Shown here: positions 13,363 through 14,889 of the stretch, one piece after another
Layout: the number at the start of each line of letters is the position of its first letter
How positions within the stretch are numbered: position 1 is the stretch's first letter
Origin: Candidatus Harpocratesius repetitus
GTDB taxonomy: Archaea; Asgardarchaeota; Lokiarchaeia; Sigyniarchaeales; Promethearchaeaceae
Assembly: GCA_021498095.1 (NCBI GenBank)
Contig: JAIZWK010000001.1
Coordinates: 240,001 to 272,000 of the forward strand
Reading direction: 5' to 3'
Length of the DNA stretch: 32,000 nt
Notes under the pieces: generated by a model
Databases searched by the model: none
Told to the model about the DNA's origin: nothing
The model's input: the letters and a program-made list of their open reading frames with translations, nothing else
Program-made: the position numbers and the translations under genes

Positions 13363-14889
13363 ATGTCTAGCGCAACCTTTACTGTTGGTTTTTATACAAT
13401 TAAATGTCGAGGAAAAATTGATAGTAATTACAAAAAATTAGCTCAAGTTTTACAAGAAAATAATTATAATCCTATTAAATTCGCAGAATTCCCATTATCC
13501 CGCAATAATTTAGCATCTATTGATATTTTAGTTATTCCTTGCCCAGATAATAATAAATTTGCAAAAAGTGAAATTCAAGCGATAAAAACATGGGTTTCTC
13601 AAGATGGTGGTGGTTTACTTTTATTAAGTCACGCAGGTGGTGACAAGGGGCGAAGAACAAATTTATCAGAATTATCTGAACAATTTGGAATGATTTTTGA
13701 AAATAATCAAGTTTTAGACAAATATCACAATCTTGGTGTTGAAAACCTCCCATTTATTGAAGAATTTACAATTCCCCATCCGATTAATGAAAATCTCCAT
13801 CGAATCGTTTTTCGCGCAGGATGTAGCCTTTCAGCGACAGGAATGAATGTAACACCAGTAATCTCTTCAGGACCTAAAGCAGATCCATTTGAAAGTCCTT
13901 TATTACTTGCATGTGAAGATGGAGAAGGTCGAGTTGTTGCTGTAGGTTCATATGAAATGTTTAGAGATAAAATATCTGGGGGAATTAATCAAGATGATCA
14001 TCAACAACTAGCATTAAATATATTTTCTTGGTTAAAAACCACACATAGAGAAAAAATAAAAGCAGGGATTGCCCCAAGCATCCCAGAATATCCAGAATAT
14101 GGCTCAAACAATGTAAACTCGGAGATTTCAGCAAATACAATTTCTGGACAATCATCATCTATCCAATATCAACCAAATTTAACCACATCTCCTGGTATTA
14201 TTCCAAAAAAATATGAATCTACAGTTAAAATACTAGCAAATGAAGATTTAATTAATGCTTTTGAATCAACATTAAAAGAGTTTTTTAATTTTAAACAAAG
14301 AATTCTAAATGATTTAAACCAATTTGAAACAAATTTAGCACTTCTGATGAAAGCAGTTTTAGCATCTGAAAAAGATATTATCGCGTTTAAACAACAACAA
14401 ACAGATAGTTTAAAGCAAGAATCCTTTAAAATTGAGAATCAATCTTCAGTAACAAGCACAGATTATTCTACACCCAAAGCAACAGCTCCAAAAATTGAAA
14501 ATTCACCAAAAGATATTTTAACAGATATCCAAAACGAGTTTAAAATTGCAAATGGAACAATTGAAAGAGAACCTAAGCCAGAAACTGCAAATCAACAAGA
14601 ACCACCTAAATCAACATCTCCATCTACAAAAATGGAAGTGAAACAAACTCGTTCTTCTATAAAAAAGCAACCAACTCAGAAAAAGAGTAAAGAAGATTTG
14701 AAAAAAGAACTAGAAACGCTAGAAAATAAACTAAATAGTATCAAAAATCTAAGAGAATTTGTTGAAAAAAAGCACGATGAAGGAACACTTACAGATAAAA
14801 GATATGAAAAGCAGATAAAAAAACTTGATACTGATAAAAATACCGCACAAGCGCGTATTCAAGAAATTCTTAAAATTTTAAATAATTAA
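13363..14889 (+). CDS. GIFT-domain (GldG/IFT52-like) protein with low-complexity linkers and coiled coils
   Basis: N-terminal ~225 aa: IDILVIPCP..KF..SEI.AIK.WV..GGGLLLL..GGD...TNL..L.EQFG, GRVVAVGS..MF.D, NIFSWL. No signal peptide; S/T/P/Q-rich linkers and a C-terminal K/E coiled coil. Confidence 0.7.
   Translation: MSSATFTVGFYTIKCRGKIDSNYKKLAQVLQENNYNPIKFAEFPLSRNNLASIDILVIPCPDNNKFAKSEIQAIKTWVSQDGGGLLLLSHAGGDKGRRTNLSELSEQFGMIFENNQVLDKYHNLGVENLPFIEEFTIPHPINENLHRIVFRAGCSLSATGMNVTPVISSGPKADPFESPLLLACEDGEGRVVAVGSYEMFRDKISGGINQDDHQQLALNIFSWLKTTHREKIKAGIAPSIPEYPEYGSNNVNSEISANTISGQSSSIQYQPNLTTSPGIIPKKYESTVKILANEDLINAFESTLKEFFNFKQRILNDLNQFETNLALLMKAVLASEKDIIAFKQQQTDSLKQESFKIENQSSVTSTDYSTPKATAPKIENSPKDILTDIQNEFKIANGTIEREPKPETANQQEPPKSTSPSTKMEVKQTRSSIKKQPTQKKSKEDLKKELETLENKLNSIKNLREFVEKKHDEGTLTDKRYEKQIKKLDTDKNTAQARIQEILKILNN

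Follow-up and report, generated by a model that had tools for sequence, protein, structure and literature searches.

A soluble Asgard-wide GIFT-domain protein family and its relationship to IFT52

Does an archaeon without cilia encode a relative of IFT52, a core subunit of the intraflagellar transport machinery? The question is raised by a gene of Candidatus Harpocratesius repetitus (Table 1), which lies in a stretch of 32,000 nucleotides of contig JAIZWK010000001.1, here called the window. An earlier note made from the DNA alone described the product as an IFT52-like scaffold, possibly part of a trafficking complex. The reading frame is uninterrupted, the opposite strand is dense in stops, and an orthologue within the same genus is 82% identical to the product. 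The note's statement that there is neither signal peptide nor transmembrane helix is borne out by a polar N-terminus and by the Kyte-Doolittle profile, in which the highest 19-residue mean is 1.12. Windows of at least 1.6 are found in 3 of 80 relatives, and are internal in each case. Judged by its sequence, the product is a real, soluble and cytoplasmic Asgard archaeal protein.

Table 1. Features of the locus, in window coordinates.
Feature	Position	Strand	Basis and remarks
VTT/DedA-family membrane protein	10982-12031	-	PF09335 E 3e-14; divergent from nucleotidyltransferase
Sugar-1-phosphate nucleotidyltransferase, C-terminal left-handed beta-helix (NTP_transferase + LbH_EIF2B)	12152-13270	+	Pfam/NCBIfam, all calls under equivalog cut-offs
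Intergenic region	13271-13362	+	T-run 13304-13321; TATA-like TTTATTTATTTTTAA 13330-13344; read from sequence
Whole gene	13363-14889	+	508 aa + stop; ORF list and translation (P0001)
GIFT domain, residues 1-235	13363-14067	+	PF23355 E 1.2e-15; pLDDT 97-98; Foldseek; hhalign
Linker 1, residues 236-293	14068-14241	+	S 16%, I 15%, P 11%; pLDDT 43-61; predicted disordered
Long single helix, residues 294-350	14242-14412	+	DSSP helix; pLDDT 66-93
Linker 2, residues 351-442	14413-14688	+	K/T/S/Q/P-rich; pLDDT 37-56; predicted disordered
C-terminal helical hairpin, residues 443-507	14689-14883	+	helices 443-472 and 478-507; pLDDT 96-98
Small convergent gene, 75 aa	14919-15146	-	invariant C15, C18, H49, H52; directly 3' of GIFT gene

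The GIFT head and its tail

The head matches Pfam PF23355 (IFT52_GIFT) with 57.7 bits (cut-off 27.2), and all 80 sequences of the family alignment match it too (best E 1e-28). In a phmmer search against solved IFT52 chains, it matches 5fmr_A (E 2.4e-12), 8bd7_B (6e-12) and 5fms_A (1e-6), and hhalign of the 80 family members against 16 eukaryotic IFT52 sequences gives a probability of 99.8% (E 2.5e-28, 224 columns). The AlphaFold2 model of the head is an alpha/beta fold like that of class I glutamine amidotransferases. With this model, Foldseek ranks IFT52 first and OST48 next, ahead of cytoplasmic bacterial and ThuA/GATase1-like proteins. The closest solved structure is the IFT52 N-terminal domain (5fmr, E 2e-19; 5fms, TM 0.84-0.91 and rmsd about 2 Å; TM 0.81-0.91 overall). 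As the Foldseek matches to solved IFT52 and OST48 and the high pLDDT of the model confirm, the head is a genuine GIFT domain, that is, a non-catalytic glutamine amidotransferase-like fold. The GIFT pattern read earlier across the N-terminal ~225 residues is recovered by PF23355, the IFT52 chains and Foldseek alike. This fold is common to IFT52, OST48/WBP1, GldG-type ABC-transporter accessory proteins and many uncharacterised prokaryotic proteins.

Within the family, G82, G93, D94, N100, P175, G189 and G195 are invariant, and C60, D62, S89, D94, N100, D119, H139, C154, S155 and Y197 are more than 90% conserved. The C-terminal strand ends carry a strongly conserved polar set (R16-G17, C60-P-D62, S89-x-A-G-G-D94, N100, Q116/D119, H139, C154-S155 and S196-Y197). 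So many invariant polar residues are equally compatible with an enzyme or a small-molecule sensor.

Strand 84-88 is followed by S89-H-A-G-G-D94, which aligns to xEGGE of IFT52 and is taken as the nucleophile elbow on the strength of the fold rather than of a superposed amidotransferase. That the protein is a GATase1/ThuA/DJ-1-like hydrolase or transferase with a non-canonical active site seems highly improbable. The fold is shared with class I amidotransferases and ThuA-like proteins, and the polar residues are unusually many, with two Cys and one His above 90% conservation. However, the elbow carries no Cys, the conserved Cys pair (C60 and C154) aligns to Gly and Ala of IFT52 with hhalign, and the nearest characterised relatives, IFT52 and OST48, are non-enzymatic. 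Furthermore, the first motif, F-D-x-x-H-K, is nearly invariant elsewhere but lacks its Asp and His in the subclade that holds the window's protein (6 of 80 sequences), suggesting that the putative crevice formed by the polar residues is dispensable or retuned, at least in part.

The anatomy of the tail was read from the AlphaFold2 model with helices assigned by DSSP, and the layout of linker, helical segment, linker and helical C-terminus given in the earlier note is seen there. The confidently modelled parts are isolated helices and the hairpin only; pLDDT is below 50 over residues 353-435. Linker 1 is weakly conserved in the family alignment (A1), and an HMM of the long helix finds relatives mainly inside the same order. 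The hairpin motif F.EKK...G......Y.KQ...L..D is a consensus in A1 and is kept in several classes. Classes appear here, and in the counts and trees below, as coded families (f1, f13 and so on), of which f13, f18 and f32 are presumably Heimdall-type and f27 Odinarchaeia. The hairpin HMM matches members of f1, f3, f4, f20, f21, f30 and f31, and finds no match in members of f13, f18, f32, f26, f27, f6 and f7. A two-copy complex prediction for residues 440-508 with the family alignment (score 0.01, mark 0.42) is uninformative either way. The idea that EGTLTDKRYEKQIKKL, the C-terminal motif, is SHOCT-like was discarded, as six tails scanned leniently against Pfam returned generic coiled-coil noise only.

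One of several Asgard GIFT families

The family is matched in 357 of 400 Asgard genomes and in 84 of the 90 high-quality ones; in several Asgard families the matches of this search are weak and at paralogue level only. A word search for the family gives 464 matches, and a word-based search for short homologues returned same-family fragments only. Sequences from 15 coded Asgard families form one clade, with SH-aLRT support of 95 in the 127-row tree and 83/76 in the 62-row tree. Head identity is 50-85% within the order and the linkers are hardly alignable, as would be expected of a binding head that is under constraint and carries a flexible tail. Among cultured species, the family is carried by Promethearchaeum syntrophicum (DSAG12_01155) and Lokiarchaeum ossiferum (NEF87_003477). 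Its automatic database name is "IFT52 GIFT domain-containing". A literature search found no paper joining Asgard with IFT52 and none on the family, and IFT52 and GIFT do not appear in the main text of two recent Asgard structure-mining papers. The family is real, conserved and Asgard-wide, and is one among several GIFT paralogues per Asgard genome.

A paralogue of 503 aa with a GIFT domain and coiled-coil is encoded in the same genome (G000:C1 ~4.24 Mb, L002 379-1890, minus strand). This and the other Asgard GIFT paralogues, including those of Helarchaeota and Ranarchaeia, share the domain with the family, are soluble, often have a coiled-coil tail, and are its nearest neighbours in the ML trees. 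However, their heads are only ~30% identical to those of the family, and they fall into separate well-supported clades and lie in other gene contexts. A divergent family member, P0153, is a fusion of GIFT with a Ras/Arf-like GTPase and is found on three independent contigs. P0140, P0152 and P0162, members from the same class, carry an N-terminal extension of ~130 aa; the idea that this is also a GTPase was dropped, as the Pfam scan of it was empty.

The family is also distinct from the other GIFT systems. The OST48/WBP1 N-terminal domain has the same fold (Foldseek E 8e-10 to 1e-8), but its Pfam model (PF03345) is matched weakly by a few family members, a likeness far below that of IFT52. OST48 is moreover a lumenal, membrane-anchored subunit of oligosaccharyltransferase, unlike the soluble protein in the window. 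Published Asgard homologues of OST48/WBP1 are confined to Heimdallarchaeia (Eme et al., PMC10307638), and these are a different family from the one described here. At E <=0.01, PF09822 is matched by 52 and PF14258 by 35 of the 80 family members. The window's protein itself has no match to PF09822 (GldG/ABC_transp_aux), and its match to PF14258 (DUF4350), a comparison that the earlier note had proposed, stays under the Pfam gathering threshold (20.1 vs 30.4 bits). GldG-type proteins have membrane anchors or an export signal and adjacent ABC-2 genes, none of which is seen for this protein.

Soluble GIFT-only proteins are also found in bacteria, examples being Aquifex aq_1776 (TM 0.76 and E 4e-15 against the model) and Salmonella STM3548 (PDB 2GK3, annotated as 'cytoplasmic protein'). 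A cytoplasmic GIFT domain is thus not a speciality of IFT52, contrary to what the note had assumed. Bacterial GIFT-only proteins of ~240 aa are the atlas feature neighbours of the window's protein; its helical and disordered tail of ~270 residues is absent from them, as it is from GldG and DUF4350 proteins.

Relationship to IFT52

IFT52 (OSM-6/BLD1; IFT-B1 core; PDB 5FMR, 5FMS and 8BD7 chain B) is homologous to the head over its full length, with 27-28% profile identity across the aligned columns. Common to both are the motifs GG.L..L...GG(D/E)...TN(L/I)N.L.E.FG...N(N/D).V and G(R/K)..(A/V).GS..MF.D. The motifs that the note had given for IFT52 are borne out: in the printed alignment, GG..LV..GEGGE...TNINFLLEEYG and G.L.VLGS..MF.D of mouse IFT52 are collinear with GGGLLLLSHAGGD..TNLSELSEQFG and GRVVAVGSYEMFRD. 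Both proteins are cytoplasmic, and in both an extended, low-complexity linker leads from the head to a C-terminal module of interaction type.

The tail, however, is unrelated to that of IFT52. The central IFT88/IFT70-binding domain (PF23352), present in full-length eukaryotic IFT52, is absent from the protein (E up to 1) and genome-wide, as is the C-terminal IFT46-binding domain (PF21178). IFT46 itself (PF12317) has no match in this 93.6%-complete single-contig genome, in a search run without a positive control. Two motifs, HPKE (K130) and NRP (R204), are invariant in 16 of 16 eukaryotic IFT52 sequences. The first lies within an IFT52 insertion of ~30-50 residues that is missing from the Asgard family, and the second aligns to ESP here, with R204 replaced by Ser. 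K130 and R204 mediate the contact of IFT-B1 and B2, with IFT57/38 (PMC9753473).

Neither PF23355 nor profile similarity is specific to IFT52. A bacterial protein with Por_Secre_tail scores 56.7 bits against PF23355, level with the protein in the window. In a search with the head, true IFT52 comes ~130th among the 150 representatives listed; the matches listed above it have no central or C-terminal IFT52 domain, and those that can be named are prokaryotic. Prokaryotic GIFT clade X8, with a Methanofastidiosia protein among its members, equals the family against the IFT52 profile (222 vs 219). When 185,579 prokaryotic species genomes were scanned with motifs found only in IFT52, an approach that cannot rank prokaryotic GIFT clades, the matches were confined to three short contigs from bacterial MAG bins; these are 46-50% identical to IFT52 and are probably eukaryotic contamination of the bins. 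Since the domains and the K130 and R204 motifs are absent, IFT46 has no match and the remaining similarity is unspecific, the protein is, as judged from sequence, not an orthologue of IFT52.

In the ML trees (127-row and 62-row), which took in no named bacterial GIFT-only sequences, the family adjoins other Asgard GIFT paralogues and not IFT52. IFT52 sits alone on a long stem (1.2-1.6 changes per site), and its weak sister is a long-branched protein from Helarchaeota (84/84), a pairing that may be due to long-branch attraction. A clade of IFT52 and the family, although not recovered in the ML trees, has an AU p of 0.328 (delta lnL 10.1, 62-row set). With paralogues nearest in the trees, IFT52 domains and motifs missing and the similarity unspecific, the family appears closer than not to grouping with ordinary archaeal GIFT/DUF4350-like proteins, the outcome that the note had named as speaking against its proposal. 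What stands of that proposal is the GIFT fold, IFT52 as the closest structure, the cytoplasmic location and a loose likeness of layout; an IFT52-type scaffold, with its domains and motifs, is not supported.

It is unlikely that the IFT52 head descends directly from this family, or is its sister, and that the family already serves as a cytoplasmic trafficking or coat-like hub, perhaps under the control of small GTPases. Among solved structures, IFT52 gives the best match, ten orders of magnitude above OST48, the protein is soluble with the order head, linker and helical tail, and the AU test is compatible with such a clade. The P0153 fusion points in the same direction, as does P. syntrophicum, where a gene for a RagA/Arf-like GTPase (384 aa) lies directly 5' of the family gene and is co-oriented. 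However, Asgard genomes are rich in small GTPases, and adjacency at about 2 of 23 loci is thus within chance. Asgard paralogues take the place next to the family in the trees, the IFT52 profile likeness is no greater than that of clade X8, both partner-binding domains and the IFT52-specific motifs are missing, the search for IFT46 found none, and several Asgard families give only the weak, paralogue-level matches. As similarity is unspecific, the partner-binding parts are missing and AU p is 0.33, listing this family as an IFT52 eukaryotic-signature homologue is unwarranted on present evidence.

Gene neighbourhoods and function

A nucleotidyltransferase gene is directly 5' of the GIFT gene and co-oriented with it in 8 of 9 Lokiarchaeales loci, the window included (gap 43-161 nt). 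In another class, two loci have it 1.6-3.5 kb 5', again on the same strand. The VTT/DedA gene is in the same place in P. syntrophicum, L. ossiferum and the same-genus genome, and completes a block in the family-level group f1. The 75-aa gene on the other side has five orthologues at the same place in f1, with 30-71% identity to the window copy, and matches no Pfam or NCBIfam family. The neighbours in the window also include a 723-aa protein with no assigned family. In other classes, the neighbours are different. In f13, f18 and f32 an ATP-dependent DNA ligase is co-oriented 3' of the GIFT gene (distances of 113 nt and 27 nt, and a 16-nt overlap), in f20, f21 and f31 family-B DNA polymerase (PolB) is just 5', and in f30 and f31 a Mre11/Rad50-like operon converges on the gene. 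As neighbourhoods differ between classes, no single functional lead emerges from context.

The adjacent nucleotidyltransferase could indicate that the protein is its ligand-binding partner, linked to sugars or glycans, for example in sensing or channelling activated sugars for cell-surface glycosylation, a role we consider rather unlikely. In its favour are the recurrent nucleotidyltransferase and the VTT/DedA protein, as DedA proteins recycle polyprenyl-phosphate carriers, and GIFT proteins do occur in glycan contexts, OST48 being a subunit of oligosaccharyltransferase. No GIFT domain is known to bind sugar. The other classes lack the nucleotidyltransferase linkage, having instead DNA ligase, PolB, Mre11/Rad50-like genes and other housekeeping neighbours. 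Additionally, between the two genes in the window, a T-run follows the stop of the upstream gene and the TATA-like TTTATTTATTTTTAA is 19-33 nt 5' of the ATG, suggesting separate transcripts. The former would be a terminator and the latter the GIFT gene's own promoter, giving a near-leaderless transcript, although T-runs and TATA-like strings are common in a genome of ~30% G+C.

The ligase, PolB and Mre11/Rad50-like neighbours would instead fit an accessory factor of DNA replication or repair. This seems very unlikely, as such neighbours are absent from the window and from the other Lokiarchaeales loci examined, PolB and the Rad50-like operon face away from or towards the GIFT gene and are not co-transcribed with it, and the protein has neither a nucleic-acid-binding domain nor a C-terminal aromatic PCNA-box. 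Linkage to housekeeping genes is also often by descent alone.

On a slight balance of probability, we take the product to be a soluble, cytoplasmic member of an Asgard-wide GIFT family that would act as an adaptor or scaffold with a binding head. This role is proposed on the analogy of IFT52 and OST48, in which the GIFT head contacts proteins. The head would be the binding module, with the conserved polar set forming a crevice that may hold a protein partner or a small ligand, and the two disordered linkers, the long helix and the hairpin would tether it to other components or to its own copies. Such an adaptor would resemble IFT52 in the loosest architectural sense only.

The origin of the intraflagellar transport machinery is an open part of eukaryogenesis, and an Asgard-wide cytoplasmic GIFT protein with IFT52 as its best structural match is a concrete candidate to test. 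The presence of the family in the cultured P. syntrophicum and L. ossiferum makes localisation and pull-down feasible. Should this family be the lineage behind the IFT52 head at the origin of the cilium, perhaps already as a GTPase-linked cytoplasmic hub, which on the evidence above is improbable, the ancestry of one IFT-B core subunit could be traced back to archaea.

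A soluble GIFT-domain family of Asgard archaea

The open reading frame runs for 508 codons without interruption, and its opposite strand is rich in stops. PF23355 (IFT52_GIFT, cut-off 27.2 bits) matches the protein over residues 20-118 and a second stretch (E 1.2e-15, 57.7 bits), while the DUF4350 model reaches only 20.1 bits, under its own cut-off. No hydrophobic segment is found in the protein (top 19-residue Kyte-Doolittle mean 1.12). The protein is soluble; its head is under strong constraint and its tail is flexible and in part helical, both delimited in an AlphaFold2 model built from an 80-sequence family alignment (see table). 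Domain match, hydropathy and model together bear out every element of the protein as described in an earlier note on this DNA, which had proposed an IFT52-like cytoplasmic scaffold in a cilium-less archaeon.

Among all PDB sequences, significant phmmer matches are to IFT52 chains only (Chlamydomonas 5fmr_A, 2.4e-12; 8bd7_B, 6e-12; mouse 5fms_A, 1.1e-6). As these alignments display the IFT52 motifs collinearly with the window protein, the motifs given for IFT52 in that note are verified. In a Foldseek search of the PDB too, the best matches are N-terminal domains of IFT52, with E-values of 2e-19 to 2e-15, TM by target of 0.81-0.91 and, for mouse IFT52, an rmsd of about 2 A, confirming the GIFT fold; OST48 in oligosaccharyltransferase structures follows (8e-10 to 1e-8), and then cytoplasmic Salmonella STM3548, ThuA-like proteins, the GH42 trimerisation domain and class I amidotransferases. 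In AlphaFold/Swiss-Prot, IFT52 comes first (1e-18), then Aquifex aq_1776 (4e-15, TM 0.76) and then OST48. Profile-profile comparison of the family with 16 eukaryotic IFT52 heads aligns 224 columns (probability 99.8%, E 2.5e-28). The head is beyond doubt homologous to domains of the GIFT superfamily.

A word-indexed search with the window protein returned 464 relatives, and every named one comes from Asgard archaea ('Promethearchaeota', 'Lokiarchaeota'), among them DSAG12_01155 (Promethearchaeum syntrophicum) and NEF87_003477 (Lokiarchaeum ossiferum), both automatically named 'IFT52 GIFT domain-containing protein' in UniRef. With a cut-off of E 1e-5, the head has matches in 357 of 400 Asgard species genomes (84 of the 90 high-quality ones); E-values run from 1e-40 to 1e-160 across the window's class and from 1e-30 to 1e-59 in numerous further coded Asgard families (f13, f18, f20, f21, f26, f27, f29-f33). 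In the same 400 genomes, f8-f11, f15, f16, f19, f22-25 and f28 have weak, paralogue-level matches only, and f12, f14 and f17 have none. GIFT matches number 3-6 in most Lokiarchaeial genomes and four in that of the window. Besides the window gene, these are a 503-aa GIFT and coiled-coil protein, which has a head about 30% identical to that of the window protein and falls in a different Asgard paralogue clade, and two giant proteins, their frames open for 1766 and 1287 aa. Two genes upstream of the 503-aa paralogue lies a frame with more than 20 near-perfect tandem PPTTEPKPFA copies.

Specificity of the resemblance to IFT52

PF23355 is not specific for IFT52. All 10 further representatives scanned pass its cut-off, and a bacterial protein with Por_Secre_tail scores 56.7 bits, the same as the window protein; true IFT52 scores 301 bits and covers the whole model. 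In an exhaustive head search of 1.84 billion representative proteins, true IFT52 appears at about rank 130 among the 150 matches listed (E 1.3e-12); those listed above it have neither the central nor the C-terminal domain of IFT52, and the nameable ones are prokaryotic. Against the IFT52 profile, hhalign scores 219 for all 43 family sequences (158-177 for five-sequence subsets), 222 for X8, a prokaryotic GIFT clade with a Methanofastidiosia 'GldG family protein', 190 for clade X7 and 171 for a Ranarchaeia clade.

Full-length IFT52 also carries PF23352 (central) and PF21178 (C-terminal), which are absent from the window protein and, in searches without a positive control, from the whole genome. 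A likewise uncontrolled search of that genome found no IFT46, one of the partners the earlier note had envisaged. K130 (HPKE) and R204 (NRP) of IFT52 mediate the IFT-B1/B2 contact (PMC9753473). The HPKE segment, invariant in IFT52, falls within an insertion missing from the Asgard family, and NRP aligns to E-S-P. Across 185,579 prokaryotic species genomes these motifs occur in no genuine prokaryotic genome; three short contigs (L059, L060 and L061, 1.6-4 kb), binned with bacterial MAGs (Paceibacterota, Desulfobacteraceae, Pseudomonadota), code for fragments that share 46-50% identity with eukaryotic IFT52 and are most likely eukaryotic contamination. Several independent tests thus point to a resemblance that GIFT domains share in general, not to a special one. 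Of the proposed IFT52-like identity, head homology and fold stand, but the specific motifs, the central and C-terminal domains and score specificity do not.

In a 127-row tree (IQ-TREE, LG+C20+F+G4 PMSF), the family forms one clade (SH-aLRT 95) with sequences from each of the 15 coded Asgard families sampled, and 36 IFT52 form another (99) whose stem measures 1.2 changes per site, with the backbone separating them not resolved (74-81). Tree rows were seeded by an Asgard query, so the sampling is biased to Asgard, and bacterial GIFT proteins are limited to those that the searches returned. In a careful 62-row tree, IFT52 (100/100, stem 1.63) is sister to a long-branched Helarchaeota protein (84/84), and the family (83/76) stands beside other Asgard paralogues (Ranarchaeia, Helarchaeota). 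Sisterhood of IFT52 and the family is not recovered, but a tree constrained to unite them, though 10.1 lnL units worse, is not rejected by the AU test (p 0.328). Thus, the data neither show nor exclude direct ancestry of IFT52 from the family. Taken jointly, it is very probable that the window protein belongs to an Asgard-wide GIFT family and is not an IFT52 orthologue.

Gene neighbourhoods

The window, P. syntrophicum, L. ossiferum and a same-genus genome share a gene order: a divergent VTT/DedA membrane protein, a sugar-1-phosphate nucleotidyltransferase with an LbH tail, the GIFT gene and a convergent small Cys/His protein. The nucleotidyltransferase lies directly upstream and co-oriented in 8 of 9 Lokiarchaeales loci, window included (gaps 43-161 nt), and a glycan or nucleotide-sugar link is one alternative for the function. 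In the window, the two genes may be transcribed separately, since the gap between them holds a T-run and, 19-33 nt upstream of the ATG, a TATA-like element, albeit in a 30%-G+C genome. A link to replication or repair is another alternative: in f13, f18 and f32 an ATP-dependent DNA ligase follows the GIFT gene closely on the same strand and is itself followed by a family-less protein of 197-214 aa and a DUF167 protein; f20, f21 and f31 have PolB, a PCC-domain protein and a HIT protein upstream of the GIFT gene; and a Mre11/Rad50-like operon is convergent in f30 and f31. In f20 and f21 the convergent gene is ARPC4-like (weak match to PF05856, Arp2/3 complex subunit 4, E 3e-7). No phylum-wide linkage is found across the classes compared, so gene context leaves the function unfixed.

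A proto-IFT hub, building on the scaffold proposed in the earlier note, is a further rival, with one lead in P0153, a divergent family member in which a GIFT head is fused to a Ras/Arf-like GTPase; the fusion occurs on three independent contigs, drawn from as many data sources. GTPase adjacency elsewhere, however, is within chance for Asgard genomes: P. syntrophicum has a co-oriented 384-aa Gtr1/RagA- and Arf-like GTPase gene between nucleotidyltransferase and GIFT gene, absent from that position in the window and L. ossiferum, and f3 has a GPN-loop GTPase ahead of the pair.

The 75-aa Cys/His gene directly follows the GIFT gene in five genomes of f1, the window's group; its product has no Pfam/NCBIfam family and is probably a small zinc-binding protein. 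The 723-aa protein beyond it has a 725-aa counterpart in P. syntrophicum and another in the same-genus genome, both in the corresponding relative place.

Coordinates of the GIFT gene, its protein regions and related loci (L numbers are contig loci)
Feature	Location	Strand	Remarks
GIFT gene	window 13363-14889	+	508 aa
Head	residues 1-235		pLDDT 97-98
Low-confidence stretch	residues 236-293
Helix	residues 294-350
Disordered stretch	residues 353-435
Helical hairpin	residues 443-507		pLDDT 96-98
Altered F-D-x-x-H-K motif	window 13363-13440		residues 8-16; genus-level subclade
Cys/His protein, 75 aa	window 14919-15146	-	C15, C18, H49, H52 invariant (RFYCxYCKK...WPYPL..PH..H)
723-aa protein	window 15448-17619	+	no Pfam/NCBIfam match
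129-aa protein	window 17717-18106	+	no Pfam/NCBIfam match
1008-aa protein	window 27986-31012	-	N-terminal lamin-tail domain, PF00932, E 4e-13
503-aa paralogue	L002 379-1890	-	own genome near 4.24 Mb
Tandem-repeat frame	L002 2524-3276	-
RagA/Arf-like GTPase gene	L035 6789-7943		P. syntrophicum; 58 nt ahead of GIFT start
GIFT-ligase locus	L054 7181-8956	-	gap 27 nt
GIFT-ligase locus	L057 7784-9595	-	16-nt overlap
GIFT-ligase locus	L053 10847-12631	+	gap 113 nt
ARPC4-like gene	L046 8272-9042	+	f20
ARPC4-like gene	L047 8390-8965	+	f21
P0153	L062 6001-7407 (also L063, L064)		C-terminal Ras/Arf/Roc-type small GTPase; P-loop GDGNVGKT at 300, NKID at 410

Conserved head residues and a possible adaptor

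Conserved head residues gather at the C-terminal strand ends (R16-G17, C60-P-D62, S89-x-A-G-G-D94, N100, Q116/D119, N123, H139, C154-S155, P175, G195-S-Y197, F200), which form the functional crevice site in this fold class. An enzyme is a rival reading here; the amidotransferase Cys is absent from the elbow of the window protein head. The window's subclade makes up 6 of the 80 relatives aligned; in it a near-invariant Asp, kept in 73 of 80, is gone via a one-residue deletion, and Ile replaces the His of the motif F-D-x-x-H-K-x-R-G (His in 52 of 80). With this Asp and His lost, the crevice appears partly altered in the window's genus. The most economical reading, though a tentative one, is that of an adaptor whose head would bind a partner or ligand and whose tail would tether the protein, because the characterised GIFT heads, those of IFT52 and OST48, are protein-contact modules.

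The GIFT superfamily and its span from prokaryotes to eukaryotes are textbook matter, and a domain-based label is already attached to these Asgard proteins in databases. The 'GldG/IFT' naming of the superfamily appears in PMC9582644. The published Asgard GIFT-type signature protein, OST48/WBP1 in Heimdallarchaeia (PMC10307638), is of a different family, and no published account of an Asgard cytosolic GIFT family or of an Asgard-IFT52 link was found in the literature. The family as such and its head, helix and hairpin architecture are undescribed. To these the window adds the Lokiarchaeales synteny with a nucleotidyltransferase, profile scores showing non-specificity, the AU result and the lineage-specific loss of Asp and His.
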